Shown: positions 27,009-63,670, counted from the first letter of the stretch. The stretch is 64,000 nucleotides of DNA from Bacteroidales bacterium (GCA_025454795.1 JALONT010000012.1:6569-70568); one strand, 5' to 3'. Notes: generated by a model from the letters alone, not told the origin. Numbers and translations are program-made.

Positions 27009-27139
27009 GTCATTAAAATATTAGAAAGTCCTACTCATAAGGCTTTTCAGTTACGCCCCGTTTTTATGGTGGTCACTGGTCTCCACCCAAATTCAAATTT
27101 AAACTATTCTAAGAAAAAAACAATTATATCTCAATTAAA

Positions 27140-41419: not shown

Positions 41420-41445
41420 TTTTAAATTCTTAAAACCAACTTAAT

Positions 41446-42804: not shown

Positions 42805-42819
42805 TCTAATAATTCCTTT

Positions 42820-43764: not shown

Positions 43765-43772
43765 TAATCATC

Positions 43773-43801
43773 AAAAGAGACTGAAAATAAGCCTCTTTTT
43801 T
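43773..43801 (+). terminator. weak/possible intrinsic terminator between the Hyi-like and lactonase genes
   Basis: AAAAGAGAC / GCCTCTTTT stem (one mismatch), a 9-nt loop, then a T-run. Confidence 0.4.
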
Positions 43802-43808
43802 ATCTGAT

Positions 43809-46545: not shown

Positions 46546-48039
46546 ATGAAAAAATTCATTCTTTCACTTGACCAGGGAACTACCAGTTCAAGAGCAATAA
46601 TATTTGACAGGAAAGGATTGCCGGTTTCAACAGCACAAAAAGAATTCACACAGTATTATCCTGAACCTGGCCGTGTTGAGCACAATCCGGAAGAGATATG
46701 GTCAACTCAGGCCGGAGTCGCCACGGAAGCAATCACCAAAGCAGGACTGGAAAGCGTAAACATTGCTGCAATCGGCATTACCAACCAGAGAGAGACGACA
46801 GTAGTCTGGAACAGAAAGACAGGCAAGCCGGTTTATAATGCTATTGTCTGGCAGGACAGGCGAACTGCTGACTTTTGCGACCGCCTGAAAAACGAGGGTT
46901 ATGATCAGATAATACTAGAAAAGACAGGACTTATAGTAGATGCATATTTCTCCGCTACAAAGGTCAGATGGATACTCGATAATGTAAGTGGCGCCAGTGA
47001 GATGGCAAACAGGGGAGAGCTTGCGTTAGGGACAATTGATTCATGGCTGGTGTGGAATCTTACTCGCGGGAAGCTTCATGTTACTGATGTTTCGAATGCA
47101 TCCCGGACAATGATATTTAATATCCATAGTTTAAAATGGGATGATGAGCTGCTTAAAATATTTGATATTCCGGCAAGTATGCTGCCCGAGGTAAAATCAT
47201 CAAGTGAAACATACGGGGAAGCTTCGGGGATTTTTTCAACACCCATTCCTGTTGCCGGTATTGCAGGCGACCAGCAGGCAGCTCTCTTCGGCCAGATGTG
47301 TGTCGACCCCGGGATGGTGAAAACCACTTATGGAACAGGCTGTTTTATGATGATGAACATAGGGACAAAACCTATTAAATCAAAAAACAGGTTGTTGACA
47401 ACCATAGCATGGAAGATTGGGAACAAAACTGATTACGCACTTGAAGGCAGCATTTTTATAGGCGGAGCAGTTGTCCAGTGGCTGCGCGACAGTCTTGGAA
47501 TTATTAAAAAATCAGCTGATGTTGAGAAGCTTGCAGCAAAAGTTAAGGACAGTGAAGGAGTCTATTTTGTTCCCGCTTTTGCGGGACTGGGAGCGCCCTA
47601 CTGGAATCAGCATGCAAGAGGATCAATAACAGGGATCACACGAGGATCAATGTCAGCACATATCGCCAGGGCGGCCCTCGACAGTATTGCTTACCAGACC
47701 CTTGAGGTACTGCTGGCAATGAATAAAGATTCAGGAATTGAAATTAAAGAACTCAGGGTTGACGGAGGTGCAACATTAAATAATAGCCTGATGCAGTTTC
47801 AGACCGATCTCCTGCAGGCAAATGTTGTGCGCCCGAGGATAACCGAAACAACGGCTCTCGGTGCTGCCTATCTGGCAGGACTTGCTGTAAACTACTGGGC
47901 TGACCTTAATGAGATAAGACAGCAATGGCAGGTTGACCGGACTTTCATACCTGGCATAAAACCTGAAGAAACTCATTCTCTGATAAAAGGCTGGCAGCGT
48001 GCAGTAAAAGCTGCAACAACATGGGCTGATGATAAATAA
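46546..48039 (+). CDS. glpK: glycerol kinase
   Basis: [26 protein letters not shown], and full-length FGGY kinase collinearity. Confidence 0.95.
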
Positions 48040-48132: not shown

Positions 48133-48846
48133 ATGAACCAGTTTTTTGCAGAATTTTTCGGTACAGCCATGATCATTGTTTTAGGTGGAGGAGTAGTATC
48201 CATTGTTCTTCTCAGTAAGACCAAAGGCAACAACAGCGGATGGATCGTCATCACATTCGGATGGGCAGTCGGAGTATTTACCGGAGTGCTGATAGCGGCA
48301 CCTGTAAGCGGCGCTCATCTGAATCCGGCCGTAACCCTTGACCTCGTGCTTGCACATAAATTTTCACCATCGCTTATGCCTTTATATATAAGTGCATAAC
48401 TTCTTGGTGCAATGTTCGGAGCCGGACTGGTATGGCGTGCCTATAAAAAGCACTTTGATGCAACGGATGATGCAGATGCAAAGCTTGCAGTTTTCTGTAC
48501 TACACCGAATATCAGGAGCTACTGGTATAATGTTGTAACAGAAATAATCGGAACCTACGTTCTTGCGCTGGCTGTTCTTTATATGGCAGCACCGGAAGTT
48601 GGACTTGGTGCACTAAATGCACTTCCTGTGGCTATCGTTGTTCTTGGTATAGGACTTTCATTGGGAGGACCTACCGGGTACGCAATAAATCCGGCACGTG
48701 ATCCTGGGCCACGTCTCATGCACTTTTTCCTGCCTTTACCACGCAAAAGAGACAGTGACTGGAAATACTCATGGGTGCCAATCCTCGGTCCAATGGTCGG
48801 AGCATCGCTGGCAGCTGTTATGTTCGTTTTGTTCGGTGGAGTATAA
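48133..48846 (+). pseudogene. glpF: glycerol uptake facilitator (MIP/aquaporin) interrupted by one in-frame TAA
   Basis: ORFs 48133-48399 and 48412-48846 are in the same frame. NPAVT lies in the first half and NPARD in the second. The TAA at 48397-48399 sits where aquaporins carry the conserved Gln (YISA*LLGAMFGAGLV versus ..SQVAGAF.. in E. coli GlpF). Confidence 0.85.
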
Positions 48847-49491: not shown

Positions 49492-50505
49492 TTAAAGAAC
49501 CTCAGTCAGTTTTACGGGGCGATTTTCCAGGAGTGATTTCTTTGCTGCCAATGCAACAGCAACAGCAACTAATCCGTCATTGCCGGATTCTGAAAGGGGC
49601 AGATCTTTAATGACTGCATTACAAAACATTTTCATTTCAGTGGTAAATGCCTCAATATACCTGTCCATGAAGAAATTCAACGGCAGTGATCTGTGCACAC
49701 CATCACTGGCAAAATAGAAGTGATTATCAGGGAAATTATTGTCAGCACATAGCATACCTTTCGAACCAAATATTTCAACTCTCTGGTCGTATCCGTATAC
49801 TGCCTTCCGGCTGTTGTCGATGACTCCGATTGCCCCATTGGTAAAGGTGAGCAAAATTACTGCTGTGTCTACATCACCTGCTTTGCCGATTTCAGGATCA
49901 ACCAGCACTGCAGCTTTTGTGAATACCTCAGTAACTTCGCTTCCGGTAATATATCTGGCCATATCAAAATCGTGTATGGTCATGTCCATGAACATACCCC
50001 CCGATGCTTCAATATATCCGGGATGAGGAGGAGTCGGATCACGTGAAGTGATCTTTAGAATGTGAGGATCGCCAATTTTTCCTTCAGCAACCAGCTGCTT
50101 GATCTTCAGAAAATTAGGATCAAAACGACGATTAAATCCTATCATCAGCTTAACACCTGCCTTTTCAACAGCCTTTAATGATCCTTTGATGACATCAAGA
50201 GAAAGGGCAATAGGTTTTTCACAAAAAATATGTTTTCCGACGTTGGCTGCATCTATAATATATTGTGCATGCGTATCTGTCGGAGAACAGATAGCAACGG
50301 CATCAACTTCGGGAAGATTGAATACGTCTTTATAGTTGCTGAATACCTTATTTATTCCGAAATTCTTCGCTACTTCTTTTGCACTAACAAGATTAGTGTC
50401 AGCAATTGCAACTAATTCAGCTTGAGGAACACTCTGAACCATTGTTGCAATATGGACCTTGCCAATTCTTCCGGTACCTATTACTCCAAGTTTTAGTTTT
50501 TTCAT
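49492..50505 (-). CDS. iolG: inositol 2-dehydrogenase (Gfo/Idh/MocA, cytoplasmic)
   Basis: Start at MKKLKLGVIGTGRIG. CEKP and GFNRRFDPNF motifs. Sits within the iol gene context. Confidence 0.85.
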   Translation of the reverse strand: MKKLKLGVIGTGRIGKVHIATMVQSVPQAELVAIADTNLVSAKEVAKNFGINKVFSNYKDVFNLPEVDAVAICSPTDTHAQYIIDAANVGKHIFCEKPIALSLDVIKGSLKAVEKAGVKLMIGFNRRFDPNFLKIKQLVAEGKIGDPHILKITSRDPTPPHPGYIEASGGMFMDMTIHDFDMARYITGSEVTEVFTKAAVLVDPEIGKAGDVDTAVILLTFTNGAIGVIDNSRKAVYGYDQRVEIFGSKGMLCADNNFPDNHFYFASDGVHRSLPLNFFMDRYIEAFTTEMKMFCNAVIKDLPLSESGNDGLVAVAVALAAKKSLLENRPVKLTEVL

Positions 50506-50539
50506 TTTATAAATTTTAAGGTTCAATTAGTTATTGATA

Positions 50540-51439
50540 TTATAAGCCAAGAGATTTAATAAACTCCCTGTTGTGTTGTGCACAAACTTTTGGATTTCCC
50601 ATCCCGGGGAGGACATCCTGCTCAACAACTATCCAACCGGAGTACCTCTGTGCTTTGAGCTTCTTGACAATAGCTTTGAAATCGACCGATCCCTTTCCAA
50701 GCTCACAAAAAACGCCATTGGCAACGGATTTAAAATAATCCCATCCTTCAGCCCTGGATTTTTCTGCCGCACCCGGATGGCAATCTTTGAAATGGATATG
50801 CCATATCCTGTTCCTGTGCTCTTTCAGCGCTTCAACAGGATTTCCACCTCCAAACATATAGTGACCCATATCGAGAACAAGACCAACAAGAGAGGGATCA
50901 GTTAGGGAAAGCAGATTGTCAATTTCAGCAGGTGTTTCCACATACCCTGCACAATGATGGTGAAAGACAGTTCGAAGACCTGTTCTGGATTTTACTTCAG
51001 ATGCAACAAGATTTGCTCCTTCAGCAAAAATTTTCCACTCATCTTTGCTGAGTCCCGTTGATGGAGTTACTCTTCCTGCATTCAATGTCCGTTCTTTCAC
51101 GCTTCCGTTTTTATCGGCAAGAACGATAAAAGCATCACTATAACCCGCATCAGCCATCAGCTTTGCAGTTTTTACTGCTGTTTCGGCACCCGCAGCATGT
51201 TTTGACCTGTCCTTCATAAAAACCGGGACAAACGCTCCAACCATTGAAAGTGATCGTTTGTCGAGCTCCTTTTTTAATTTAAAAGGTATTGTCGGCATAA
51301 AACCCCAGTCGCCAAGCTCAGAGCCTTCATAACCGGTTTCCCGGATTTCATCAAGAACCTGTTCAAATCCGGCAGCTTTACCACCCAGATCAAATTCGAG
51401 GACACCCCATGAACAAGGGGCATTGGCAATTTTTATCAT
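50540..51439 (-). CDS. iolE: myo-inosose-2 dehydratase-like TIM barrel
   Basis: FHHH..G..ET..E, D.GH, HIHFKD and YSGWIVVEQD align with my recollection of B. subtilis IolE. The N-terminal half is less similar. Confidence 0.7.
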   Translation of the reverse strand: MIKIANAPCSWGVLEFDLGGKAAGFEQVLDEIRETGYEGSELGDWGFMPTIPFKLKKELDKRSLSMVGAFVPVFMKDRSKHAAGAETAVKTAKLMADAGYSDAFIVLADKNGSVKERTLNAGRVTPSTGLSKDEWKIFAEGANLVASEVKSRTGLRTVFHHHCAGYVETPAEIDNLLSLTDPSLVGLVLDMGHYMFGGGNPVEALKEHRNRIWHIHFKDCHPGAAEKSRAEGWDYFKSVANGVFCELGKGSVDFKAIVKKLKAQRYSGWIVVEQDVLPGMGNPKVCAQHNREFIKSLGL

Positions 51440-51476
51440 AGTAAATTGAAATTAGAAAAACATTTATATTGTTTTA

Positions 51477-52949
51477 TTAAAACTTTCTTGTCCATTCATC
51501 GTGCCAGCGCTCAATGACCACCTTTGTCTGGGTATAAAATTCTACAGCGTGAAAAGATTGTCCATGGAGATCTCCAAAGAAGCTTTCTTTCCAACCGCTG
51601 AAAGGGAAGAATGCCATGGGTGCTGCAATCCCAATGTTCACCCCGATATTGCCTGCCTGAGCATCGTGCCTGAATTTTCTGGCTGCAGCTCCGCTGGTGG
51701 TAAAGATGCTGGCAGCATTACCATGAACGCTATCATTTGTCAATTTTATTGCATCATCCAGTGAATCAACATTATTGATGATAATTACCGGACCGAATAT
51801 TTCTGTTTTGTACAATTCACTTTCAATATCAACACTCCCTAATATTGTTGGGCCAATAAAGTTTCCATCTTCACATCCAGGAACTTTAATATTTCTTCCG
51901 TCGAGTAATAGTTTTGCACCGTCATCAATACCCTTTTGTATCAGTTTTTCAATCCGCTCCTTACTCTCCATAGTAATAACCGGTCCTATTTCCACACCAT
52001 TTGTCATCCCGTTTCCAATTTTCTTTGATTTTGAGGCTTTGATAATTTTTTCAGTAAAGATTTCTCCGGCCTTCCCGACAGTCAGAATAATCGCAACAGC
52101 AAGACATCTCTGTCCTGCACATCCATAAGCACTGTCGGTAATAATTTTAACGGTAGCATCTACATCAGCATCAGGCATTATAACTACCGGATTCTTTGCA
52201 CCTCCCAGAGCCTGAACCCGTTTTCCATGGGCAGTGCCGGTTTTATATATGTATTTTGCTATAGGGGTAGAACCCACAAAACTAACTGCCTTAATATAAG
52301 GATGTTCGAGAATTGCATCGACGGTTGCCTTACCGCCATGAACCATATTCAAAACTCCTGCGGGCAGGTTTAATTCCTCAAATAATTCGAAGACGCGGTT
52401 CATTGTTCGAGGTACTTTCCCTGAAGGCTTTATTATATATGTATTACCGCAGGCAATAGCATAAGGCATGAACCAGAACGGTATCATAACCGGGAAATTG
52501 AATGGAGAGATACTTGCGCCAACGCCCAATGGCTGGCGTATATAATACTCATCAACGCCGACAGCTATATCTTCAGAAAAATCACTCTGCAGAAGTGTCG
52601 GTATACCACAGGCTACCTCAATATTTTCAATGGCACGAGCTAATTCCCCTTTGGATTCTGCAAAAGTCTTGCCACATTCACTGGTACATATTTCAGCGAT
52701 CTCATCTGAGTTTTTTTCCAGGATCTGTTTCATCTTAAAGAGATACTGTACGCGCTGAGTGGGAGGCTTATTACGCCATGACCACCATGCCTGATGAGCA
52801 CTCTCTGCTGCATCATCAATATCCTCTTTTGATCCTGCAGGAACCTTTGCAAGACATTCACCGGTAGCCGGATTTAAAACATCCCGGACTTTTGATTCCT
52901 TGCTATCACACCATTGTCCGTTAATGAAGTTTTTTAAAATTCTTGTCAT
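51477..52949 (-). CDS. iolA: CoA-acylating (methyl)malonate-semialdehyde dehydrogenase
   Basis: ALDH fold with the catalytic Cys context GCAGQRCLA; 490 aa; iol gene context. Confidence 0.9.
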   Translation of the reverse strand: MTRILKNFINGQWCDSKESKVRDVLNPATGECLAKVPAGSKEDIDDAAESAHQAWWSWRNKPPTQRVQYLFKMKQILEKNSDEIAEICTSECGKTFAESKGELARAIENIEVACGIPTLLQSDFSEDIAVGVDEYYIRQPLGVGASISPFNFPVMIPFWFMPYAIACGNTYIIKPSGKVPRTMNRVFELFEELNLPAGVLNMVHGGKATVDAILEHPYIKAVSFVGSTPIAKYIYKTGTAHGKRVQALGGAKNPVVIMPDADVDATVKIITDSAYGCAGQRCLAVAIILTVGKAGEIFTEKIIKASKSKKIGNGMTNGVEIGPVITMESKERIEKLIQKGIDDGAKLLLDGRNIKVPGCEDGNFIGPTILGSVDIESELYKTEIFGPVIIINNVDSLDDAIKLTNDSVHGNAASIFTTSGAAARKFRHDAQAGNIGVNIGIAAPMAFFPFSGWKESFFGDLHGQSFHAVEFYTQTKVVIERWHDEWTRKF

Positions 52950-52981
52950 ATAATTATATTATTTATTGTTATCAGTTTATT

Positions 52982-54841
52982 TTACAGGAAGTACCTCTGT
53001 TTCTTCTTATTCTCGATGTAGCTCTGATAAGCTTTCTTAACTGTATCTTTTTCAGCGACCTCTGCAACAGCTACTTCCCACCAGGCGTATCCCGGAATGC
53101 CTTTATAGAGATCAGTATCAATAGTTATAACAGTTGTCACAGCCTGTTTTTTAGCTTCTGCAAGAGCATTTTTTAAAGACTTAATATCAGTCGCTTTAAT
53201 AACATGTGCTCCAAGACTTTGTGCATTTTGTGCAAAATCGACAGGAAGAGTATCTCCTGTCAGTAATCCGGATTTTTCGTCGCGGTAGCGGTATTTCGTA
53301 CCGAAGCGCTTCGATCCTATCGATTCGGACAATCCTCCAATACTGCCGAATCCATTGTTATTCAGAAGGATAATTATAACTTTAATTCCTTCCTGGATTG
53401 CTGTTACGATTTCATTATTCATCATGAGATAGTTGCCATCACCAACCATGACATAAATCTCACGGTCAGGGCAGGCCATTTTTGCACCAATTCCTGCTGC
53501 ACATTCATATCCCATAGTTGAGTAACCATATTCAAGATGAAAACCTTTTGGATCCAGTGTCCTCCAGAGCTTATGGAGATCTCCGGGTAAACTTCCGGCA
53601 GCGCAAAGCACAACGTCGCGGGGTTCTGCAAACTCATTAACAGCACCAACAACTTCAGCCTGTGAAACCGGGAGATCCCCCGTGACCTTACAGAATTCGC
53701 TGACCTGTTTATCCCAGGTTTTATTTGAATTGGCAGCGCGTGTCATATATTCATCTGAAACCCTGAATCCGGCTAATAAGCTTAAGAGTTCCTCAAGGCA
53801 TACTTTAGCATCACCAGTTACAGGCAGTGCAGAGTGCTTATACGAATCGAATTCAGCAATATTAATGTTAATGAATTTTACATCAGGATTCTGGAAGGCG
53901 GTTTTTGACGCAGTTGTAAAATCGCTGTAACGTGTTCCGATACCGATAATAAGATCAGCCTCTGAAGTAAATTCATTTGCGCCGGGAGTTCCTGTCACAC
54001 CCACAGCCCCAAGGTTTAAATGGTGGTTATAAGGGAGCGAACCTTTCCCTGCAAAGGTCTCAGTAACGGGGATCCCGCATTGTTCAATAAGATTAATCAG
54101 GGCTTCCGTTGCCTGGCTGTATATCACTCCGCCGCCGGCCACAATGACTGGTTTTGTTGAAGATTTGATCATTGCAGCAGCTTTTTCTAAGATGGAAGAA
54201 TCAGGTCTGGGCCTTGCAATCCTCCAAACCCTTTTCAGAAACAGCTCTTCCGGAAAGTTAAAAGCTTCTGCCTGCACATCCTGTGGTAACGCCAGGGTGA
54301 CAGCTCCGGTATCCGAAGGTGATGTAAGTACTCTCATCACCTCAGGAAGAGAAGTAATTATTTGTTCAGGCCGGTTAATCCTGTCCCAGTATTTTGACAC
54401 CGGTTTAAAACAATCATTCACTGAAATATCCTGTGAATCAGATGATTCAAGCTGTTGTAAAACAGGTGCAACATTGCGACGTGCAAAAATATCACCAGGC
54501 ATAAGCAGCACTGGTAACCTGTTGATTGTTGCACAGGCTGCCCCGGTTATCATGTTTGTTGCGCCGGGACCAATTGAGGAGATACATGCAAAAGCACCCA
54601 GGCGGTTCTTCATTTTCGCATAAGCTGTAGCAATATGCACTGAAGCCTGTTCGTTTCTGGTCATATAATAACGGAAATCGGGATTTTCCATCAGTCCTTC
54701 ACCAACTCCGGCCACAATACCATGGCCGAATATTCCCAGGCAGCCGGCAAAAAACTGATTTTCAATACCGTCCCTTTCAACATACTGGTTTTTCAGAAAT
54801 CTGACAATTGCCTGTCCGACAGTAAACCGATTTGTTTGCAT
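52982..54841 (-). CDS. iolD: 3D-(3,5/4)-trihydroxycyclohexane-1,2-dione acylhydrolase (ThDP-dependent)
   Basis: N-terminus FTVGQAIVRFLKNQYVERDG...IFGHG parallels B. subtilis IolD; GDG..LM ThDP motif; 619 aa. Confidence 0.9.
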   Translation of the reverse strand: MQTNRFTVGQAIVRFLKNQYVERDGIENQFFAGCLGIFGHGIVAGVGEGLMENPDFRYYMTRNEQASVHIATAYAKMKNRLGAFACISSIGPGATNMITGAACATINRLPVLLMPGDIFARRNVAPVLQQLESSDSQDISVNDCFKPVSKYWDRINRPEQIITSLPEVMRVLTSPSDTGAVTLALPQDVQAEAFNFPEELFLKRVWRIARPRPDSSILEKAAAMIKSSTKPVIVAGGGVIYSQATEALINLIEQCGIPVTETFAGKGSLPYNHHLNLGAVGVTGTPGANEFTSEADLIIGIGTRYSDFTTASKTAFQNPDVKFININIAEFDSYKHSALPVTGDAKVCLEELLSLLAGFRVSDEYMTRAANSNKTWDKQVSEFCKVTGDLPVSQAEVVGAVNEFAEPRDVVLCAAGSLPGDLHKLWRTLDPKGFHLEYGYSTMGYECAAGIGAKMACPDREIYVMVGDGNYLMMNNEIVTAIQEGIKVIIILLNNNGFGSIGGLSESIGSKRFGTKYRYRDEKSGLLTGDTLPVDFAQNAQSLGAHVIKATDIKSLKNALAEAKKQAVTTVITIDTDLYKGIPGYAWWEVAVAEVAEKDTVKKAYQSYIENKKKQRYFL

Positions 54842-54863
54842 AATCTTTAGTCCTTATTAATAA

Positions 54864-55757
54864 TTACTTACCATTCATTTCAATTGTCACAACCGGGATT
54901 CTGGGATCCATCCCTTTCCATGTTCCATAAATCCATTTATGATCAGGATCATCTGTACTTTTCAGGCTCTGGTCACTTCCTGCAAGAAAATTAAGATAAT
55001 AGACATTGTATCCGTGTCCGGCAACAACAGGGTGGTATCCTTCAGGTATCAGAACCACATCATTATTATGTGCTTCAGCTATTTCATCCAGGCTGCGATC
55101 ATCATTATATACCTTCTGAATTGCAAATCCCTGGGGTTTATCGGTCTTATAAAAATAGATCTCTTCCAGGCTTGCTTCAATAAGTTTGCCCGTAACCGGA
55201 TCAGTTTTCCTGGTGTCGTGCTTATGAGCAGGGAATGAGCTCCAGTTTCCTGAAGGCGTATAAACCTCAACACATACCAGACGGCTGCATTCAGATCCCG
55301 GAGGTAATATGCTGTTTATCTGACGACTGGCATTATCTCCACCCCGGAATTCAATGCCCATATTAACAATGTCAGCAGGAGATATCAACCTGGCCGGGAA
55401 ATTCTTTTCCGCAATGCTCCAGCCACAAGCGATATCAAGAAAATCACCGGCAGGAGAAATTTCAAATTCAGTATGAGGAGGAAGATATAATGCATGAGGG
55501 AGTCCGCTGAATACATTTTTTCTTCCATCTGAGGTTACCCAGGTACCAGCAGATGTTTCTGCCAGTAAATTGCCTCCCATCAGCACAAACAGGTATTCAC
55601 ATCCTCCTGTTTTTCCGGTCCATTTTTGTGATGGCTTTATTGTTCTTGCTGTAAAATTCAATAGATTCCAGCCTGCTTCATCTGCAGTTATCTCCTGGTA
55701 GATTTCTTTATCCAAGGATGATCTTACCAGTACCCGGCATTTTTTATCCCTTTTCAT
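54864..55757 (-). CDS. iolB: 5-deoxy-glucuronate isomerase
   Basis: VEVYTPSGNWSSFPAHKHD...GYHPV...YYLNFLAG closely parallels B. subtilis IolB. Confidence 0.9.
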   Translation of the reverse strand: MKRDKKCRVLVRSSLDKEIYQEITADEAGWNLLNFTARTIKPSQKWTGKTGGCEYLFVLMGGNLLAETSAGTWVTSDGRKNVFSGLPHALYLPPHTEFEISPAGDFLDIACGWSIAEKNFPARLISPADIVNMGIEFRGGDNASRQINSILPPGSECSRLVCVEVYTPSGNWSSFPAHKHDTRKTDPVTGKLIEASLEEIYFYKTDKPQGFAIQKVYNDDRSLDEIAEAHNNDVVLIPEGYHPVVAGHGYNVYYLNFLAGSDQSLKSTDDPDHKWIYGTWKGMDPRIPVVTIEMNGK

Positions 55758-55767
55758 GAATTAGTTT

Positions 55768-56841
55768 CTAGATCAGCATCATATCCCTGATCTTTAGAAC
55801 AAGATCAGAGGTTGCCTGACAAAATTGCCTTAAGGTCCTTACTGTAGCTCCGAATTCATCGAACTCCTCTGCTTTCATTCCCTTTTCATCATATGCACGC
55901 CGGAAATCAACAAACTTCTTTTCAAGTTCAGAAATTATCTTCGGATCTACAGGTGTATCCATCCTGTTCTCTACTGTTATATCCGATGCATTGTATCTTT
56001 TCTGCCATAGCCAGGGCGGAGAGATTACAACATTTCCTCCAATGAATTCTGACCAGTGCAGATGATTTCTGAAGGCAGCACTTAATAACCTTAACCGGTA
56101 TCCTCTTTCGCAGTATATCCTGTAAGCTTTCTTCATTACAGCCACACCTGCCCAGTCAAGAATTTCAGGGTTTGCAATGATGTTTTCCTTATCTGCCACC
56201 ACTTTCAGCCAGTCATCGAGCCTTCCTACCATGAGAGTACAGACAGGACCCATCGTGCTGATATCTTTTCCTTCTTTCTCGCGATGTTTTAATCCGCGTT
56301 CCACGGCTTCAGCTACTTCAACAGCCTGAGGGAGAGTAAAGCTTACTGTTGCATTAATGCTTATTCCCATGTATGTCGCCTCTTCTATAGCTTCTATTCC
56401 GGCTTTTGTAGCCGGTATTTTAACAATCATGTTCGGGGCAAGCTCACTGAAATGGACGGCTTGGGCAAGGATTCTTTTGGCATCACGGTAGAGTCTGGGA
56501 TCTGTCTGTATCGACAGCCTTCCATTCCTGCCTTTTTCCCTGTCGAATACAGGCTTAAGAAGCGCTGCTGCCTTAATCGACATTTCCTCGATAAGTTTCC
56601 AGGCAATATCATCTTCGGATGCAGCTGGATTCTCCAGGATGATTTGCGGTATCCGGATTTTCCAGATATCCCATTCCTGTTTAAGAACACTATTGACAAT
56701 CACCGGATTGCAGGTTGCTCCCAAAGCTCCATGCTCTATCGAAGATGTTAACTCTGCTAAAGAGCAGGAATCATTCCACAGAACTGTCGGCGTTGTCTGT
56801 GTCATTTCATGAAGGGTGCTTTTATAAGTTTTGTTTTGCAT
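55768..56841 (-). CDS. transaldolase-family protein (class I aldolase fold)
   Basis: Start at MQNKTYK (ATG at 56841, preceded by GGAGGAG). GATCNP motif. Schiff-base lysine context MIVKIPATKAG. Confidence 0.8.
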   Translation of the reverse strand: MQNKTYKSTLHEMTQTTPTVLWNDSCSLAELTSSIEHGALGATCNPVIVNSVLKQEWDIWKIRIPQIILENPAASEDDIAWKLIEEMSIKAAALLKPVFDREKGRNGRLSIQTDPRLYRDAKRILAQAVHFSELAPNMIVKIPATKAGIEAIEEATYMGISINATVSFTLPQAVEVAEAVERGLKHREKEGKDISTMGPVCTLMVGRLDDWLKVVADKENIIANPEILDWAGVAVMKKAYRIYCERGYRLRLLSAAFRNHLHWSEFIGGNVVISPPWLWQKRYNASDITVENRMDTPVDPKIISELEKKFVDFRRAYDEKGMKAEEFDEFGATVRTLRQFCQATSDLVLKIRDMMLI

Positions 56842-56888
56842 TGATTCTCCTCCCAGGATGTTTTTATTTAAGTTATGATTTTTAAAGA

Positions 56889-58697
56889 TTACCAGAAGAA
56901 ATAATAGAGTGATGCCAGAATTCCACAAATTCCAATAACAGCAATATTGAATGTCATTGAGGTATTGAATAATCCTTTACGGATAATAATTGCCCTGGCA
57001 TCCATCTTCTTTAATTTATTATTCAGTATCAAAATGAGACCGACCAGCATAAACATAAAAACCAGTACATAAACAGCATCAAGCGCCAGGTTTCTTAAGG
57101 GATAAACGAAAAAAGTAGCAATAATTCCTACAAACATGGCTATAGCCATAATTTTCATTCCTAATCCAACAAATTTTCCCCCGGATTCTTTATCAAAAAC
57201 ATTTTCAGTTTTATGTTTTTTATCCAGAAGGCTCATACCGACAAATACAAAAGATAAAATAATGAATACGTAACCAATACGAAGGACAAACGGCATTTCA
57301 GGGAAAAGCATTTTCATCCCCAGTCCAAGTGGTATGGTCAGTAACGCTGTCGCAAGCGCTGCATTAGAAGATGCCTGCCGCCAGAAGAGTCCGCAGAAGA
57401 ATATAAGAAATTCGCCAGGATAAATAAATCCTGTGTATTCCTGGACGTATTGAAATGCCTGGTCGAGAGTTTGCAGATGAGGAGCAATAAAGGTTGATAT
57501 CGACAGGAAAATAAAACCTGCTATAGTACCTGTTCTGACCAATTGTTTTTCTGTCGCATTTTTCTTCAGGAAACTTTTATAAATATCCATGGTAAAAACC
57601 GTGGAAGCACTATTGACAAGGGAACTAATGGAAGAGACTGCCGCAGCAGCTATTGCTGCAAATGAAAGCCCTCTGATCCCGATAGGTATTATGTTTCTAA
57701 TTAGCCACGGATAAGCTTCATCTGATTTCCCCAGTTTTGCACCCAGGGCGAATACTGCAATTCCCGGTATAACAACCAGGAGAGGTATCAGCAATTTCAG
57801 ATATCCCGCAAAAGCTACTCCAAGCTGAGCTTCTTTCAGGTTCTTCGCAGCAAGCCCTTTCTGGATTATAAACTGATTGAATCCCCAGAAACTTAAATTA
57901 GTCAGCCACATAGATCCCAGAATTACCCCTAAACCCGGAAGATCTGAAAAGGCATCCTTTAACCCTCCTTTTCCATCCGGAGCAAACAGGGTATTTTTTT
58001 CAATGATCATATGTAATTTCTGGGGTACTTTGTCCAATAATTCAGCAAAACCGGCAATCACCCCATTGCCGTCACTAAGAGCATTAAGTGCGAAAGCTGT
58101 TGTTATCAGCCCGCCCAGAATTAAAACAGTTACATTTATAACATCTGTCCATGCAACAGCTTTTATCCCACCCCAGAGGGAGTATAATGCAGAAAAAGCT
58201 GAAAACCCGATAACTCCGTAAATCATTGGAACTCCGATAATTCGTTCCATTGCCAGGGCTCCCAGATATATGACCGTAGTCATATTTACAAAAGTATAGA
58301 CCAGTATCCAGAAAACTGCAAAACAGGTACTGACTCTTTTATCATATCGTTGTGAAAGATACTGGGGCATTGTAAAGAACCCCTTTTCAATAAAGACAGG
58401 AAGAAAGAACTTGGCCACAATTATAAGTGAAGCAGCTGCAATCCATTCATAAGCGGCTATGGCTAATCCGATTGCATAACCGGAACCTGACATTGCAATA
58501 AAATGTTCTGCCGATATATTAGCAGCAAGCAGTGTTGATCCTATCGCCCACCAGGGTAATGAACGGCTTGCTAAAAAATAGTCCTGGGATGTTCTCTGGA
58601 CCCCCTTCTTTCTGCGTGATACCCATAATCCAATAATGACAATTATGGAAGCATATCCAAAGAAAACTATCCAGTCGATAGTGGTAAACTGATTCAT
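56889..58697 (-). CDS. sodium:solute symporter (SSS/SGLT family), probable inositol transporter
   Basis: 602 aa with about 14 TM helices, SSS-family layout, and first position in the iol block. Confidence 0.8.
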   Translation of the reverse strand: MNQFTTIDWIVFFGYASIIVIIGLWVSRRKKGVQRTSQDYFLASRSLPWWAIGSTLLAANISAEHFIAMSGSGYAIGLAIAAYEWIAAASLIIVAKFFLPVFIEKGFFTMPQYLSQRYDKRVSTCFAVFWILVYTFVNMTTVIYLGALAMERIIGVPMIYGVIGFSAFSALYSLWGGIKAVAWTDVINVTVLILGGLITTAFALNALSDGNGVIAGFAELLDKVPQKLHMIIEKNTLFAPDGKGGLKDAFSDLPGLGVILGSMWLTNLSFWGFNQFIIQKGLAAKNLKEAQLGVAFAGYLKLLIPLLVVIPGIAVFALGAKLGKSDEAYPWLIRNIIPIGIRGLSFAAIAAAAVSSISSLVNSASTVFTMDIYKSFLKKNATEKQLVRTGTIAGFIFLSISTFIAPHLQTLDQAFQYVQEYTGFIYPGEFLIFFCGLFWRQASSNAALATALLTIPLGLGMKMLFPEMPFVLRIGYVFIILSFVFVGMSLLDKKHKTENVFDKESGGKFVGLGMKIMAIAMFVGIIATFFVYPLRNLALDAVYVLVFMFMLVGLILILNNKLKKMDARAIIIRKGLFNTSMTFNIAVIGICGILASLYYFFW

Positions 58698-58857
58698 GAA
58701 TACTGTTAAAATTTTAGTGAATGATTACAAGGTAAAATTAATTTGAAAAGGGATCACGTTTATACTTTAAATTTATCAATTAGTAATGCTATATTAGCAA
58801 TTCTTGATCAGGTTACCAGAAGTTATGCAAATACTGATATAAATATGCTATTATTTT

Positions 58858-59748
58858 ATGAAACCATTTTATCAGAAGCTTGTAACATTACCAGCTCAAT
58901 CAGTGATCTTTTATAATGAGGAAAAACCCCATTTTACCGTGCCATGGCATTTCCATCCTGAAATCGAAATACTATGTGTTATTAAAGGTTCTGGGATTTG
59001 TTATTCGGGAGATGGAATTCATCCTTTTTCAGAAGGCGAAATAAGTTTATTAGGTGAAAACATACCTCATTGGTGGAAAAGTGACAGTAAATACCTGGAT
59101 CCTGAAAACGAACAAGGAATTAAAGCCCTTATAATACAATTCAAGAAAGAGATTTTTGATGCAAATTTTATTAACCTGCATGAGATGCGCGCAATTAAAG
59201 AACTAATCGGAAAATCTCAGAGAGGCATTCAGTTTATGGGGAAAAACAGAAAAATTCTTGGTGATCAGATAATGAAAATATTCAGGTTAAAGGGTGTAAA
59301 AAGAATTACGGAGCTGATAATTCTCCTGGACATGATGGCAAAAGTCAGAGAATATAAATACCATTCGAGTGTTGGTTATTCAAGGATAATCAGTTCATAT
59401 GATTTCTTCCGTTTTAATTCGGTTCATGAATATGTAATACGGAATTTTACCAAACCAATAACACTTCAGGAAATTTCAGAAAAAGCAAATATTTGTCCAA
59501 CTGCCTTTTGCAGATATTTTAAAAAACATACCGGGAGGACCTTTGTTTCTTTTCTCAATGAGATCAGAATAGGGTATGCATGTAAACTTTTAATTGAAGA
59601 AGCGCGTCCTGTAAACCTGGCCTGTATTGAGAGCGGCTTTAATAATCTGGCTCATTTCAACAAAATATTCAAACGGACATTCAATTTAAGTCCGACCGAA
59701 TACATTAAAGCACATGGCCTTTATGGAGTTCCGCTCAAAGAATATTAA
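58858..59748 (+). CDS. AraC-family transcriptional regulator with N-terminal cupin domain
   Basis: C-terminal double HTH (ISEKANICPTAFCRYFKKHTG...NNLAHFNKIFKRTFNLSPTEY). Divergent from the iol block. Confidence 0.85.
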   Translation: MKPFYQKLVTLPAQSVIFYNEEKPHFTVPWHFHPEIEILCVIKGSGICYSGDGIHPFSEGEISLLGENIPHWWKSDSKYLDPENEQGIKALIIQFKKEIFDANFINLHEMRAIKELIGKSQRGIQFMGKNRKILGDQIMKIFRLKGVKRITELIILLDMMAKVREYKYHSSVGYSRIISSYDFFRFNSVHEYVIRNFTKPITLQEISEKANICPTAFCRYFKKHTGRTFVSFLNEIRIGYACKLLIEEARPVNLACIESGFNNLAHFNKIFKRTFNLSPTEYIKAHGLYGVPLKEY

Positions 59749-59809: not shown

Positions 59810-59899
59810 ATTACCTTAACAGAATGAATCTGAGATTCAATTATTTTGTAAATAGCATAGCGATTGGAAGATAGATTAACACTCCACATAAAATTAAAA

Positions 59900-61237
59900 A
59901 TGAACACTACAAGCCAGTCAATAGAGGAACCAAAGAAAAGTAATTTCCGTTGGGTCATAGTAAGTTTACTTTTCTTTGTGACGGCAATAAATTATGCAGA
60001 CCGTACAGTACTTTCAATTGCAGGGCCGGCATTATCCAAGAGCCTGCATCTGAATTCGGTGTCAATGGGATATATTTTTTCGGCATTTGGCTGGTCATAT
60101 GTTCTTGCCCAGCTTCCAGGAGGATGGCTCCTGGACCGTTTTGGGTCAAGGAAAATATATGCTATCAGTCTTTTTGTATGGTCTTTCTTTACATTTATTA
60201 CAGGATTTACAGGTTTCTTTGCTGGTTTTTCGGCCGTTGTTGTGCTATTTATCTTAAGGTTCCTTCTGGGTGTTGCAGAAGCTCCGGCTTTTCCGGCAAA
60301 CAGCAGAATTTCCGTGGCCTGGTTCCCTACAAAAGAAACCGGTACTGCAGCAGCTTTATTCAATTCATCACAATATTTTGCAACAGTGCTCTTTGCTCCT
60401 TTATTAGGATTTATAGTTCATACTTATGGGTGGAAGTATTCTTTTATGTTTATGGGGATAGTAGGATTTGTTTTTCTGATCTTCTGGCTGAAGTATGTGC
60501 ATGCTCCAAAGAAATCCCCGTACATTAATCAAGCCGAGCTGGACTATATTACAAAAGGTGGGGCTCTTGTAGAGATGGACCTTGCAGTGAAAAGCAATAG
60601 AAACGATGCCCCCAGATGGAAATTCCTGAAGCAACTTTTAAAGAACCGTATGTTTATAGGCGTTTATATTGCCCAATATTGTATAAATGCAATTACCCAT
60701 TTTTTCATTACCTGGTTTCCGGTTTATCTGGTTCAGGACCGGGGAATGACCATTCTTAAAGCCGGGTTTGTTGCTGTATTACCAGCAATTGTTGGTTTTG
60801 TCGGAGGGAACCTTGGCGGTATATTCTCAGATTCTCTGTTGAAAAAAGGCTATTCTCTTTCTGTTGCCAGAAAAGTGCCGATTGTTATCGGGATGCTGTT
60901 ATGCATGAGTATGACTTTATGCAATTATACGAATGTTGAATGGATGGTGGTTGCTCTTATGGCATTGTCGTACTTTGGTAAAGGTATCGGAGCCCTTGGC
61001 TGGGCAGTCAATGCCGATACGGCACCAAGAGAAATCACAGGTCTGAGCGGATCTCTTTTTAACACCTTTAGCAATCTTTCAAGCATCGTCACACCAATCG
61101 TAATCGGTTATATAATAGGAGCTACAGGTTCCTTTAACTGGGCATTGATTTTTGTCAGTTTTCATGCATTCCTGGCTATTGTCAGCTATGTTTTTATTGT
61201 AGGAGAAATCCAGCGTTTCGAACTTAAGAAAATATAA
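59900..61237 (+). CDS. MFS transporter, anion:cation symporter (ACS) type (GudP/GarP-like)
   Basis: 12 TM helices and an ADRTVLS... motif region, in a glucarate context. The first plausible ATG gives MNTTSQS. Confidence 0.8.
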   Translation: MNTTSQSIEEPKKSNFRWVIVSLLFFVTAINYADRTVLSIAGPALSKSLHLNSVSMGYIFSAFGWSYVLAQLPGGWLLDRFGSRKIYAISLFVWSFFTFITGFTGFFAGFSAVVVLFILRFLLGVAEAPAFPANSRISVAWFPTKETGTAAALFNSSQYFATVLFAPLLGFIVHTYGWKYSFMFMGIVGFVFLIFWLKYVHAPKKSPYINQAELDYITKGGALVEMDLAVKSNRNDAPRWKFLKQLLKNRMFIGVYIAQYCINAITHFFITWFPVYLVQDRGMTILKAGFVAVLPAIVGFVGGNLGGIFSDSLLKKGYSLSVARKVPIVIGMLLCMSMTLCNYTNVEWMVVALMALSYFGKGIGALGWAVNADTAPREITGLSGSLFNTFSNLSSIVTPIVIGYIIGATGSFNWALIFVSFHAFLAIVSYVFIVGEIQRFELKKI

Positions 61238-61276
61238 TCTCATACAAAACTAAAACTCAAATAAGGAGGACATATT

Positions 61277-62164
61277 ATGTATAAAATCGGATTTATTGGT
61301 TTGGGGATAATGGGAAAACCCATGAGTAAAAATCTTATTAAAGCGGGATACAAACTGGTTGTACTTGATTTAAACCAGGGCGCCATGAACGAACTTGTAT
61401 CAATGGGTGCAGAGAAAGCAGCAACTCCCAAAATAATTGCAAATAATTGTGAATTCATAATTACTATGTTGCCTAATTCTCCGCAAGTTAAGGAAGTCGT
61501 ACTTGGTAAAAACGGGTTGATAGAAGGATTAAAAACCGGTTCTGTCTTTATTGATATGAGCTCTATATCACCTATCGTAAGCAGGGAATTATCCAGAAAA
61601 GTTGAAGAAAAGGGTGTGGAAATGCTGGATGCTCCCGTAAGTGGCGGCGAACCAAAAGCAATAGACGGAACACTCTCGGTTATGGTGGGTGGTAAAAAAG
61701 ATGTTTTTGACAGAAGCTTTTCCATCCTGAAAGCCATGGCTGCATCCGTAGTGCATACTGGTGGTATTGGTGCAGGAAATGTTACCAAACTCGCCAATCA
61801 GATTATTGTAGCACTGAATATAGCAGCAATGTCTGAGGCGCTGGTTCTGGCTACTAAAGCCGGTGTTGAACCCGAACTTGTTTATCAGGCGATACGGGGA
61901 GGACTTGCCGGAAGCACAGTATTGGATGCAAAAGCGCCATTGGTGATGGATAGAAAGTTTAATCCAGGATTCAGGATAAATCTGCATATCAAAGACCTGA
62001 GTAATGCGTTGGATACATCACACGAAATCGGCGTCCCATTGCCACTTACATCAGCAGTAATGGAAATTATGCAGGCACTTAAGGTGGATGGACTGGGAGA
62101 AAAAGACCATGGAAGCCTGATACAGTACTATGAAAAATTAGCGAAGATTGTAGTAAAGAGATGA
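61277..62164 (+). CDS. garR: 2-hydroxy-3-oxopropionate (tartronate semialdehyde) reductase
   Basis: IGFIGLGIMGKPM, DAPVSGGEPKA and GAGNVTKLANQ; near-collinear with E. coli GarR. Confidence 0.85.
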   Translation: MYKIGFIGLGIMGKPMSKNLIKAGYKLVVLDLNQGAMNELVSMGAEKAATPKIIANNCEFIITMLPNSPQVKEVVLGKNGLIEGLKTGSVFIDMSSISPIVSRELSRKVEEKGVEMLDAPVSGGEPKAIDGTLSVMVGGKKDVFDRSFSILKAMAASVVHTGGIGAGNVTKLANQIIVALNIAAMSEALVLATKAGVEPELVYQAIRGGLAGSTVLDAKAPLVMDRKFNPGFRINLHIKDLSNALDTSHEIGVPLPLTSAVMEIMQALKVDGLGEKDHGSLIQYYEKLAKIVVKR

Positions 62165-62171
62165 TCAGAAA

Positions 62172-62290
62172 TCGGTATGCGGCATGCGGCACGCGGTTCA
62201 CGGCACAAGGCACTCGGCACACGGAAAAAGAAACACGAAACCCAGGCACCAAGCACCGAGCGCCAAGCAACAAGGACCCAACACCAGAAT
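62172..62290. repeat. 7-bp periodic tract (TATGCGG CATGCGG CACGCGG TTCACGG CACAAGG CACTCGG CACACGG, decaying into A/C-rich heptamers)
   Basis: Units parsed by hand from 62176. The first 18 nt (62172-62189) are the exact reverse complement of 30070-30087. Confidence 0.8.
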
Positions 62291-62317
62291 TAATTAGATG
62301 ATAACCCATTATAATGA

Positions 62318-63670
62318 TTGAATATGAATCCTGAAGATTTCAAAGGAGCACCCATCGTAACTGAAATGTCGGTAATTCCGGTTGCGGGTTACGACAGTAT
62401 GTTGCTTAATCTCAGCGGTGCCCACAGCCCCTTTTTTACACGAAACGTTGTTATTCTGAAAGATAGCGCAGGAGACACCGGTGTCAGCGAAGTTCCTGGC
62501 GGAGAGCTTATCCGGCAGGTGCTGGAAGAATCAAAGACTCTTGTAATCAACAAGCCAATAGGTTCTTATAATAATATCCTAAACGAAGTCCGGCAGAGGT
62601 ACAACGACAGGGATTCAGGAGGACGTGGCTTACAGACCTTCGATTTACGCATTACCATTCATGCAATAACAGCATTAGAAGCTTCATTACTGGATCTTCT
62701 CGGCCAGTTTCTTGGTGTTCCTGTTGCTGCATTGCTTGGCACAGGCCAGCAGCGGCAAAAGATGGAAATGCTTGGCTATCTGTTTTATGTTGGCGACCGG
62801 GGGAAAACAGATTTGCCATATTTCAGTGCTTCAAATCAAAAGGATGACTGGTTGAGATTGAGGAGCGAAAGTGCTCTGACCCCGGAAGCAATTGTCCGGC
62901 TGGCAGAAGCAACTCATCAGCGCTATGGCTTTAAAGACTTTAAACTAAAAGGCGGGGTAATGAGCGGCAGCGAAGAAATGAAAGCAATGGTTGCACTTGC
63001 CAACCGCTTCCCGGATGCCAGGATGACTATAGATCCCAATGGCGCATGGTCGCTTGATGAAGCTATACAATTATGTAAGAATAAACATGATGTACTTGCA
63101 TATGTTGAGGACCCCTGTGGTGCAGAAAAGGGCTACTCAGGACGTGAAATAATGGCAGAATTCAGGAGGGCAACAGGATTGCCGACAGCCACAAATATGA
63201 TAGCTACCGATTGGCGTCAGCTGGGACATTCAATTCAGTTGCATGCGGTGGACATTCCCCTGGCCGATCCGCATTTCTGGACAATGCAGGGTGCAGTAAG
63301 AGTTGCACAGATCTGTCACGAATGGGGATTAACATGGGGTTCACATTCCAATAATCATTTTGATATATCGCTTGCAATGATTGTCCATACCGGGGCTGCA
63401 GCTCCCGGCAAAATTACTGCTTTGGACACACACTGGATCTGGCAGGAAGGACGGGAACGCTTAACCAGGGAGCCTCTTAAAATTACTGGAGGAATGATCT
63501 CTGTGCCTGACAAGCCAGGTCTGGGAATTGAAATTGATATGGATCAAATTGAAAAAGCAAATAAACTGTACATGGAAAAAGGACTTGGGGCAAGAGACGA
63601 TGCTGTGGCAATGCGATATCTGATACCGGGATGGAAGTTTGACAATAAACGCCCTTCTCTTGTTCGTTAG
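62318..63670 (+). CDS. gudD: glucarate dehydratase (enolase superfamily)
   Basis: [32 protein letters not shown] closely parallels the E. coli GudD N-terminus. Confidence 0.9.

Follow-up and report, generated by a model that had tools for sequence, protein, structure and literature searches.

How does a bacterium break down myo-inositol when its catabolic operon carries neither the kinase nor the aldolase of the pathway? This question is raised by a 64,000-nucleotide stretch of DNA from a Bacteroidales bacterium (GCA_025454795.1, JALONT010000012.1:6569-70568; the whole stretch is called the window below and positions are counted from its first letter), in which a set of iol genes surrounds a gene for a transaldolase (TAL)-like protein. 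In the canonical route, IolC phosphorylates 5-dehydro-2-deoxy-D-gluconate (DKG), and IolJ or an aldolase of the DUF2090 or Cgl0159 type splits the resulting DKG-6-phosphate (DKG-6-P). On balance, we favour the view that the TAL-like enzyme would act on unphosphorylated DKG and feed malonate semialdehyde to IolA. More tentatively, we propose that this is a widespread branch, in which a clade of TAL-like proteins with Gln and Met in the active site might serve as a dihydroxyacetone (DHA) transferase from DKG to glyceraldehyde-3-phosphate (GAP), replacing IolC and IolJ in Bacteroidota, Acidobacteriota, Chloroflexota, Bacillota and Verrucomicrobiota and running parallel to the kinase route in some Proteobacteria and Actinomycetota; we regard this wider proposal as possible, falling short of probable.

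The iol operon and its TAL-like gene

The listing of open reading frames (ORFs), a reading of the sequence, and Pfam and NCBIfam scans revealed a compact unit of seven minus-strand genes at 49492-58697. From 58697 leftwards the order is SSS symporter-TAL-IolB-IolD-IolA-IolE-IolG, with intergenic gaps of 47, 10, 22, 32, 37 and 13 nt, respectively. The parts are:

58858-59748, plus strand: AraC-family regulator, divergent from the operon (Pfam HTH_18, HTH_AraC and AraC_binding)
58698-58857, no strand: AT-rich divergent intergenic region of 160 nt, presumed from its position to be the promoter/operator
56889-58697, minus strand: SSS sodium:solute symporter, presumably for myo-inositol uptake (Pfam SSF, 227 bits; TIGR00813, 331 bits)
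55768-56841, minus strand: protein of the TAL/fructose-6-phosphate aldolase (FSA) fold with Gln and Met in the active site, proposed to cleave DKG as a DHA transferase or an aldolase (Pfam TAL_FSA, 128 bits)
54864-55757, minus strand: IolB, 5-deoxy-glucuronate isomerase, the producer of DKG (TIGR04378, 304 bits; cut-off 205)
52982-54841, minus strand: IolD, trihydroxycyclohexane-1,2-dione acylhydrolase (TIGR04377, 896 bits; cut-off 715)
51477-52949, minus strand: IolA/MMSDH, CoA-acylating (methyl)malonate-semialdehyde dehydrogenase (TIGR01722, 593 bits; cut-off 448)
50540-51439, minus strand: IolE-like inosose dehydratase with a xylose-isomerase-like TIM barrel (AP_endonuc_2; TIGR04379, 207 bits, below the cut-off of 290)
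49492-50526, minus strand: IolG, inositol 2-dehydrogenase, starting at TTG 50526 or ATG 50505 (TIGR04380, 453 bits; cut-off 355)

IolG, IolD, IolB and IolA all scored above their NCBIfam cut-offs. The assignment of IolE rests on family and context because its TIGR04379 score is below the cut-off; the fold is right and the position is conserved. The best explanation of the block is an operon for myo-inositol catabolism under presumed AraC control. When the operon was scanned for sigma-70 promoters and terminators, the matches were not above chance, with a tool that does not model Bacteroidota promoters.

The ORF of the TAL gene extends mechanically to a TTG at 56928. The most likely start is the ATG at 56841, which is preceded by a GGAGG ribosome-binding site and gives a protein of 357 aa, in agreement with homologues of 357-362 aa. 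Such a strong GGAGG Shine-Dalgarno sequence (56842-56856) was seen only at the TAL gene, while the six other genes of the operon have the AT-rich leaders typical of Bacteroidota.

Search for the kinase and the aldolase in the window and its flanks

Pfam was run on 46 selected non-shadow ORFs: one of 144 aa, and 45 of the 53 in the window that reach 150 aa. None of the 46 contained a PfkB, F_bP_aldolase (fructose-bisphosphate aldolase of class II, FBA), DeoC/LacD or DUF2090 domain. Similarly, tblastn with IolC of Paenibacillus and of B. cereus, the Rhizobium IolC-DUF2090 fusion and the IolJ-type class II aldolase of the B. cereus iol cluster gave no match in the window at E<=1e-5, and no window match was obtained with Clavibacter IolC, the Clavibacter DeoC-like aldolase or E. 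coli DhaKLM as queries. The only sugar kinase of the window is a bona fide glycerol kinase, GlpK (46546-48039), in the neighbouring glpD-glpK-glpF block.

The flanks could be extended with a 115-kb metagenome contig that has the same gene order and identical copies of the two window proteins for which a look-up was made. On the left this contig reaches about 10 kb further (ribosomal proteins, EF-Ts and others), and on the right about 8 kb (transposases and a glucarate/galactarate cluster). Among the precomputed Pfam labels of the genes in these approximately 18 kb of extra flank there was no PfkB kinase and no class II or DeoC-type aldolase. A class I aldolase of the DHDPS family lies in the right flank as part of the adjacent glucarate/galactarate cluster.

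The first-pass annotation of this DNA had described a tight minus-strand block with gaps of 10-47 nt, the named iol genes and a divergent AraC regulator, and had reported no PfkB-type kinase or class II aldolase in the block or the window. The ORF listing and the Pfam and NCBIfam scans bear out the first statement, and the Pfam scans and tblastn the second. The alternative aldolases of the IolC-DUF2090 and Cgl0159 types, which that annotation had not considered, were likewise not found in the window.

Linkage of the TAL gene to iol genes

We obtained 80 loci from one scan of species-representative genomes with the TAL protein as the query and fetched up to 10 kb on either side. The TAL orthologues at these loci are 54-86% identical. 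Most loci came from Bacteroidota (17), Chloroflexota (16), Acidobacteriota (14) and Alphaproteobacteria (12); further carriers belong to Spirochaetota, Myxococcota, Betaproteobacteria, Calditrichota, Bacillota, Verrucomicrobiota and Actinomycetota. Overall, orthologues of 54-92% identity are present in at least ten phylum-level groups.

Within the 80 fetched loci we found iolB in 57, iolG-like genes (any match to the GFO/IolG family) in 52, iolD in 52, iolA in 48 and iolE in 46, and the TAL gene directly abuts a gene of the iol cluster in 57. The order IolB-TAL-IolD occurs in 13 loci. According to a survey of iol clusters (PMC9430895), a widespread canonical order is B-C-D-E, and in these 13 loci TAL therefore occupies the usual slot of iolC. 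Some loci (L079, L041 and L044) have kept the TAL-IolA pair alone, which agrees with malonate semialdehyde as the product. In addition, we identified an IolE-TAL fusion (P0127) in a library of 1.8 billion protein sequences; its IolE-like domain matches the window IolE over the full length with 30% identity (E=2e-36). A second candidate fusion, P0159 (TAL with a partial IolB), looks frameshifted or mis-called and was not used. It is clear that the TAL gene belongs to the iol operon, as the first-pass annotation had assumed from the window alone: the abutting genes, the iolC slot and the IolE fusion all bear this out.

In Bacteroidota the order SSS-TAL-IolB-IolD-IolA-IolE-IolG is repeated in 14 of the 17 loci as far as the contigs reach, and the other three (L009, L012 and L015) are rearranged. 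An orthologue of the SSS symporter lies near the TAL gene in 15 of the 17; it abuts the TAL gene directly in 14 of the 80 loci. The AraC orthologue was found in 10 Bacteroidota loci (including L008 and L010-L016) and stands directly upstream of the cluster in L010, L013, L014 and L016. The Spirochaetota and Myxococcota loci are without iolD and iolE, and there TAL is kept with iolA, iolG-like or short iolB-like genes.

Joint loss of the kinase and the aldolase

We defined a TAL-linked cluster as one with at least two of IolB, IolD and IolE by TAL (n = 50). Bona fide IolC was absent from the fetched locus in 42 of the 50 clusters, and the aldolase was absent from them too. The survey counts 1,024 genomes without one of iolB/C/D/E within 10 kb, among clusters in 7,384 species (PMC9430895). 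When the baseline is taken as roughly 14%, the binomial p for 42/50 is 2e-28, calculated for loci that are not independent. The first-pass annotation had proposed looking for this clade together with iolB and iolD where iolC and iolJ are missing; at the locus level, TAL stands with at least two of IolB, IolD and IolE in the 42 clusters without kinase and aldolase. By group, bona fide IolC was present as follows:

Bacteroidota: 0 of 15 clusters
Acidobacteriota: 0 of 13
Bacillota: 0 of 2
Verrucomicrobiota: 0 of 2
Betaproteobacteria: 0 of 1
Chloroflexota: 3 of 11
Alphaproteobacteria: 5 of 6

None of the 17 Bacteroidota loci carried a kinase that qualified as IolC. Moreover, among the 80 loci there was no case of an IolJ, DUF2090 or Cgl0159-type aldolase without IolC. 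The kinase and the aldolase are thus either both retained or both lost, as predicted if TAL replaces the pair and not if it replaces the aldolase only.

At least five of the eight IolC-positive clusters also have an aldolase, in the form of IolC-DUF2090 fusions, and three have the kinase only. IolC together with an aldolase of its own also occurs in L037, L047, L067 and Clavibacter pCI3, which are outside the count of 50 clusters. The aldolase beside IolC is a DUF2090 fusion in Alphaproteobacteria and Propionivibrio, and Cgl0159/DeoC-like in the metagenome-assembled genome (MAG) L067 of Acidimicrobiia and in Clavibacter pCI3. In the genomes where IolC comes with an aldolase, TAL is not needed as a DKG-6-P aldolase.

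One of these cases comes from a cultured plant pathogen. Plasmid pCI3 of Clavibacter michiganensis subsp. insidiosus (NZ_CP021037.1; L086, 3136-15071) encodes a TAL orthologue of 54% identity beside a complete canonical set of iolC, a DeoC-like aldolase gene, iolB, iolD, and IolE-like and IolG-like genes.

Family, structure and active site of the TAL-like protein

The protein matches Pfam TAL_FSA (PF00923) with 128 bits but falls far short of the cut-off for each of the ten NCBIfam TAL/FSA models. Its highest score was 126 bits, for NF002881, versus a cut-off of 367, and the FSA model TIGR00875 gave 36 bits versus 246; the length of 357 aa also differs from the approximately 220 aa of FSA. By sequence, the nearest solved structure is the TAL of C. 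glutamicum (3R5E, E=1e-21). An AF2 model (mean predicted local distance difference test score, pLDDT, of 84) superposed on 3R5E with a template-modelling (TM) score of 0.76 and a structure-based identity of 23%. The hhalign probability was 98% to E. coli TalB and only 88% to FSA.

Residues were mapped by aligning the protein with E. coli TalB and FsaA, using MAFFT and hhalign:

D24, equivalent to TalB D17: kept
N45, equivalent to TalB N35: kept
Q112, equivalent to TalB E96: Gln, as Q59 in FSA
K141, equivalent to TalB K132: the Schiff-base Lys
N163, equivalent to TalB N154: kept
T165, equivalent to TalB T156: kept
T202, equivalent to TalB S176: hydroxyl kept
M204, equivalent to TalB F178: FSA has Tyr131 here
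R207, equivalent to TalB R181: kept
A256, equivalent to TalB S226: changed
R258, equivalent to TalB R228: kept

The direct hhalign alignment to FSA is gapped around M204, and the equivalence to FSA Tyr131 was taken via TalB F178. Q112, K141, M204, R207 and R258 are invariant in an alignment of 24 sequences across several phyla with 56-92% identity. In TalB, S176 touches the C1 hydroxyl of the donor, and R181 is part of the acceptor phosphate site, made of two Arg and one Ser (PMC3962226). The TalB residues around the free C1 and C3 hydroxyls of the DHA unit are retained, with the equivalents of D17, N35 and N154 unchanged and S176 present as Thr; as both distal Arg are kept too, a pocket for free DHA and a distal anion site appear to be intact. 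The predicted acid/base pair, Gln/Met, is neither of the TAL type (Glu/Phe) nor of the FSA type (Gln/Tyr), and judged by its sequence the protein is not an ordinary housekeeping transaldolase.

The wider family comprises 357 clusters at 50% identity (E<=1e-30, in the same library of 1.8 billion sequences). The clade lacks a model in NCBIfam release 20 (June 2026), and the PGAP name is 'transaldolase family protein'. A distant paralogue of about 35% identity is encoded on a plasmid of Shinella sumterensis (CP132317.1; L088, 8806-10026), within an acetoin-dehydrogenase-like E1alpha-E1beta-TAL-E2-E3 cluster together with a class II FBA, HAD phosphatases, a TIM-barrel protein and triose-phosphate isomerase. 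Within the wider Gln-type TAL family there are probably further roles that await characterisation.

Proposed route

Read from C6, DKG is CH2OH-CO-CHOH-CHOH-CH2-COO-. By our own derivation, with the Fischer projection turned by 180 degrees, its C4 and C3 hydroxyls are arranged as those at C3 and C4 of D-fructose (D-threo; 3S,4R from the keto end). DKG is therefore an analogue of fructose-6-phosphate (F6P) or of sulfofructose with a distal carboxylate, and its suitability for chemistry on the DHA unit, which had been put forward in the first-pass annotation, agrees with our check. The fructose-like stereochemistry also agrees with IolJ being a homologue of FBP aldolase.

In the route we propose, myo-inositol would enter via the SSS symporter, be oxidised by IolG and dehydrated by IolE; IolD would then open the ring and IolB isomerise the product to DKG. 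Lys141 of the TAL-fold enzyme would form a Schiff base with the C5 keto group of unphosphorylated DKG, and cleavage of the C3-C4 bond would free malonate semialdehyde, which IolA would turn into acetyl-CoA and CO2. The enzyme-bound DHA unit would be passed to GAP, giving F6P, and the enzyme would be a DKG:GAP transaldolase; less likely, free DHA would be released, as by FSA. The substrate, the acceptor and the direction are all predictions from sequence and gene context.

The route would dispense with the kinase, and this is not the same as saving ATP. The net ATP cost would equal that of the canonical route unless F6P is then phosphorylated with pyrophosphate (PPi) by a PPi-dependent phosphofructokinase, and the clear gain would be one enzyme for two.

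Points against the proposal and its scope

Several findings weigh against this route. As about 82 kb around the operon were seen and the close relatives are all MAGs, iolC could lie elsewhere in the genome. TAL orthologues stand beside IolC and a dedicated aldolase in Clavibacter pCI3, the Acidimicrobiia MAG, Propionivibrio and about seven Alphaproteobacteria. Three Chloroflexota loci (L045, L052 and L055) have the order TAL-IolB-IolC-IolD and no aldolase, which is a better match to a role as DKG-6-P aldolase. Other PfkB kinases occur a few kb upstream of some clusters: a KdgK-like one in two Rikenella loci (L012 and L015) and a ribokinase-like one with a GH4 glycosidase in six Acidobacteriota loci. 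No alignment column separates the TALs with IolC from those without it. Finally, with Gln for Glu96 and no Tyr, the competence of the active site for the predicted reaction is presumed.

The Rikenella and Acidobacteriota kinases score 103-114 bits versus the IolC cut-off of 300, and in the remaining 34 clusters tblastn with IolC-type queries (E<=1e-5) revealed no PfkB in the DNA seen. The mean TAL identity is 62% between the IolC-positive and IolC-less groups and 64% within the IolC-less group. Two functional TAL subtypes were considered and set aside, as no discriminating residue was found. One function must therefore fit both contexts, and the bypass would also be able to run in parallel with the kinase route. 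Given the coexistence with complete sets of IolC and aldolase, the enzyme would be a bypass or a parallel branch and not always a replacement.

Two claims of the first-pass annotation need to be narrowed in this light. That the TAL gene stands in place of iolC and iolJ holds for the 42 of 50 clusters without both and fails in the lineages where it coexists with the complete set. That DKG could be cleaved, or its DHA unit transferred, independently of a kinase gains support from the linkage, the joint loss and the altered active site with the DHA pocket kept; the coexistence with IolC sets speaks against it, and a saving of ATP is not implied.

In the Rikenella MAGs L012 (2830-8480) and L015, the genes ahead of the iol-TAL cluster, past the AraC gene, encode the KdgK-like PfkB, a BglB-like glycosidase and a long SSS transporter. 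These genes may be a glycosyl-inositol module or include a non-orthologous kinase.

Alternative roles for the TAL-like protein

The first alternative differs from our proposal only in dispensing with the GAP acceptor. The protein would be an FSA-like retro-aldolase on unphosphorylated DKG, and the free DHA would then either be reduced to glycerol or gain a phosphate through glycerol kinase or a DHA kinase. The Gln in the position of Glu96, as Gln59 in FSA, keeps this sub-variant alive, and in the window glpD-glpK-glpF immediately adjoins the operon. However, an invariant Met stands at the position of the acid/base Tyr131 of FSA, and the single change F178Y is reported to be enough to turn TalB into an FSA-like aldolase (PMC3962226). 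DhaK, DhaL or DhaM genes were found neither in the window nor in any of the 80 loci, and the window glpF carries an in-frame stop. The glpK-glpD adjacency, considered as a sign of free DHA, was rejected as incidental, being common to only one of the 80 loci. Transfer to GAP is favoured by the lack of Tyr at position 204, the lack of a linked DHA kinase and the non-conserved glpK neighbourhood; if DKG is the substrate, a transaldolase is thus more likely than an aldolase, and we consider release of free DHA rather unlikely.

The second alternative is that the protein is a non-orthologous DKG-6-P aldolase releasing dihydroxyacetone phosphate and malonate semialdehyde, with the kinase (IolC, PfkB or KdgK-like) elsewhere in the genome. 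Non-orthologous DKG-6-P aldolases are already known, for example DUF2090 (PMC9007349). The three Chloroflexota loci, in full TAL-IolB-IolC-IolD-IolA, have an IolC of 374 bits (TIGR04382 cut-off 300) and no aldolase in the fetched locus, and other PfkB kinases lie near the Rikenella and Acidobacteriota clusters. Against this, the TalB residues for a free C1 hydroxyl are all conserved (N45, N163, T202 and D24), with no sign of a phosphate pocket there, and most IolC-positive TAL loci already have their own DUF2090 or Cgl0159-like aldolase. Such a role predicts loss of the aldolase only, yet kinase and aldolase are gone together in 42 of the 50 clusters, and iolC is normally clustered with iolBDE (PMC9430895). 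It therefore seems unlikely that the protein acts in this way.

We give a similarly low probability to a third alternative, in which the substrate is not DKG but another inositol-related compound, such as a keto-sugar acid that comes from a different isomer of inositol or from a glycosyl- or methyl-inositol. The coexistence of TAL with full canonical sets, its presence in Spirochaetota and Myxococcota loci without iolD and iolE, and the quite different E1/E2/E3 cluster of the distant Shinella paralogue would fit such a role. However, the most direct and strongest neighbours are iolB, the producer of DKG, and iolD or iolA, and the window has no other enzyme able to carry DKG onward.

An ordinary pentose-phosphate transaldolase, co-expressed with the iol genes so that sugar phosphates are rebalanced as the cell grows on inositol, with iolC and iolJ encoded elsewhere, would account for the database name, the TAL fold and the coexistence with a complete canonical pathway in some genomes, but it is highly improbable given the 126 bits versus 367 for the nearest curated model with all ten cut-offs missed, the invariant changes Glu96 to Gln and Phe178 to Met, the 23% structure-based identity to the nearest solved TAL, and the tight iol linkage, iolC slot and IolE fusion, which are not expected of a housekeeping enzyme.

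Comparison with known systems

The proposed DKG:GAP transaldolase is most easily compared with sulfo-TAL sulfoglycolysis, in which SqvA/SftT moves a DHA unit from sulfofructose to GAP, giving F6P and dispensing with the kinase (PMC12890257). In both systems an isomerase makes a fructose-configured ketose with a distal anion that is not a phosphate, and a TAL-fold Schiff-base enzyme splits it, or would split it, to give a DHA unit and an anionic aldehyde of three carbons, so that the dedicated kinase and aldolase of the Embden-Meyerhof-Parnas-type variant are unnecessary. The likeness extends to the genes: iolB, the isomerase gene, adjoins TAL, and the kinase and aldolase are absent from the cluster, a pattern repeated in 42 of the 50 clusters. 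In contrast, SqvA belongs to the short FSA/TalC type, with about 220-226 aa, whereas the present protein has a type-2 (actinobacterial/Neisseria-like) scaffold of 357 aa, and its sequence match to BmSF-TAL is marginal (E of about 1e-5 over 74 residues). The anion of DKG is a carboxylate, one atom nearer the scissile bond. The changes at Glu96 and Phe178 were mapped in the present protein only.

With canonical transaldolase (EC 2.2.1.2; TalB, 3R5E and N. gonorrhoeae 3CLM) the protein shares the TIM-barrel TAL fold (TM 0.76), the Schiff-base Lys and the equivalents of Asp17, Asn35, Asn154, Thr156, Arg181 and Arg228. It differs in the changes Glu96 to Gln, Phe178 to Met and Ser226 to Ala, in scoring under all curated cut-offs, and in having its gene in an iol operon and not among pentose-phosphate genes. 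The likeness to FSA (E. coli FsaA) lies in the Gln59-type Gln and in the same DHA-type donor chemistry with 3S,4R stereochemistry; the differences are Met for the catalytic Tyr131 and 357 aa versus 220 aa.

Compared with the canonical iol pathway (IolG-E-D-B-C-J-A), the operon keeps IolG, IolE, IolD, IolB and IolA together, and malonate semialdehyde is still the expected substrate of IolA, but a TAL-fold gene is present instead of IolC and an aldolase of the IolJ, DUF2090 or Cgl0159 type. In the known DUF2090 variant only the aldolase is replaced and the kinase is kept (PMC9007349). Other aldolase-only variants are Cgl0159-like proteins and possibly a housekeeping class II FBA in Dysosmobacter. 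In openly searchable full text we found no link between a transaldolase and inositol catabolism or the iol pathway; subscription-only work lay outside this search and may hold a prior description.

Significance

Among the plant carbon sources of soil, sediment and the gut, myo-inositol, which stems from phytate, is a major one. KEGG, GapMind and the IolCatGC survey treat iolC as a core gene, so organisms with TAL only would be recorded as non-users of inositol or as having an incomplete pathway. In the survey (PMC9430895), only 3% of Bacteroidota are reported as iol-positive. If the proposed route is correct, a one-enzyme bypass would fill this gap for lineages in at least six phyla, and it would be a second case in nature, sulfo-TAL being the first, in which a transaldolase short-circuits a pair of kinase and aldolase. 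The active site would represent a third catalytic constellation in the TAL/FSA superfamily, of relevance to engineers of DHA-transferring aldolases, and the pathway would cost less ATP in organisms where PPi serves to phosphorylate F6P.

Other features of the neighbouring DNA

Beside glpD-glpK, the glpF gene (MIP family; 48133-48846, plus strand) has an in-frame TAA at 48397-48399, at a position that is Gln in aquaglyceroporins (...YISA*LLGA...). This may be a pseudogene, a sequencing error or a read-through site.

Downstream of the AraC gene, at 59864-63670 (plus strand), lies a glucarate/galactarate-type cluster with genes for an MFS transporter resembling GudP, a reductase resembling HIBADH/GarR and a dehydratase of the enolase superfamily. 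The longer contig (L092, 11048-15068) shows its continuation, which encodes a DHDPS-family protein and a GD_AH dehydratase and is followed by transposases.

At 39899-44939 (plus strand) we noticed a 506-aa fusion of a NapC/NirT tetrahaem cytochrome c domain and an FGE-sulfatase domain, an unusual combination, followed by genes for a GFO/IDH/MocA oxidoreductase, a xylose-isomerase-like TIM barrel and a 7-bladed lactonase. A single ORF at 37943-39373 (minus strand) joins an inosine-uridine nucleoside hydrolase domain and an FmdE domain. The Rfam DUF805 RNA motif is present at 27024-27091 (minus strand; 74 bits versus a gathering score of 51), just 3' of a gene for a 738-aa protein (27140-29356) with YadA-head repeats and a Peptidase_S74 (endosialidase chaperone) domain. 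Finally, a 157-aa ORF at 12473-12946 (plus strand) matches only the C-terminal half of a xylose-isomerase-like TIM-barrel profile (positions 101-227 of 249) and is probably a truncated gene.

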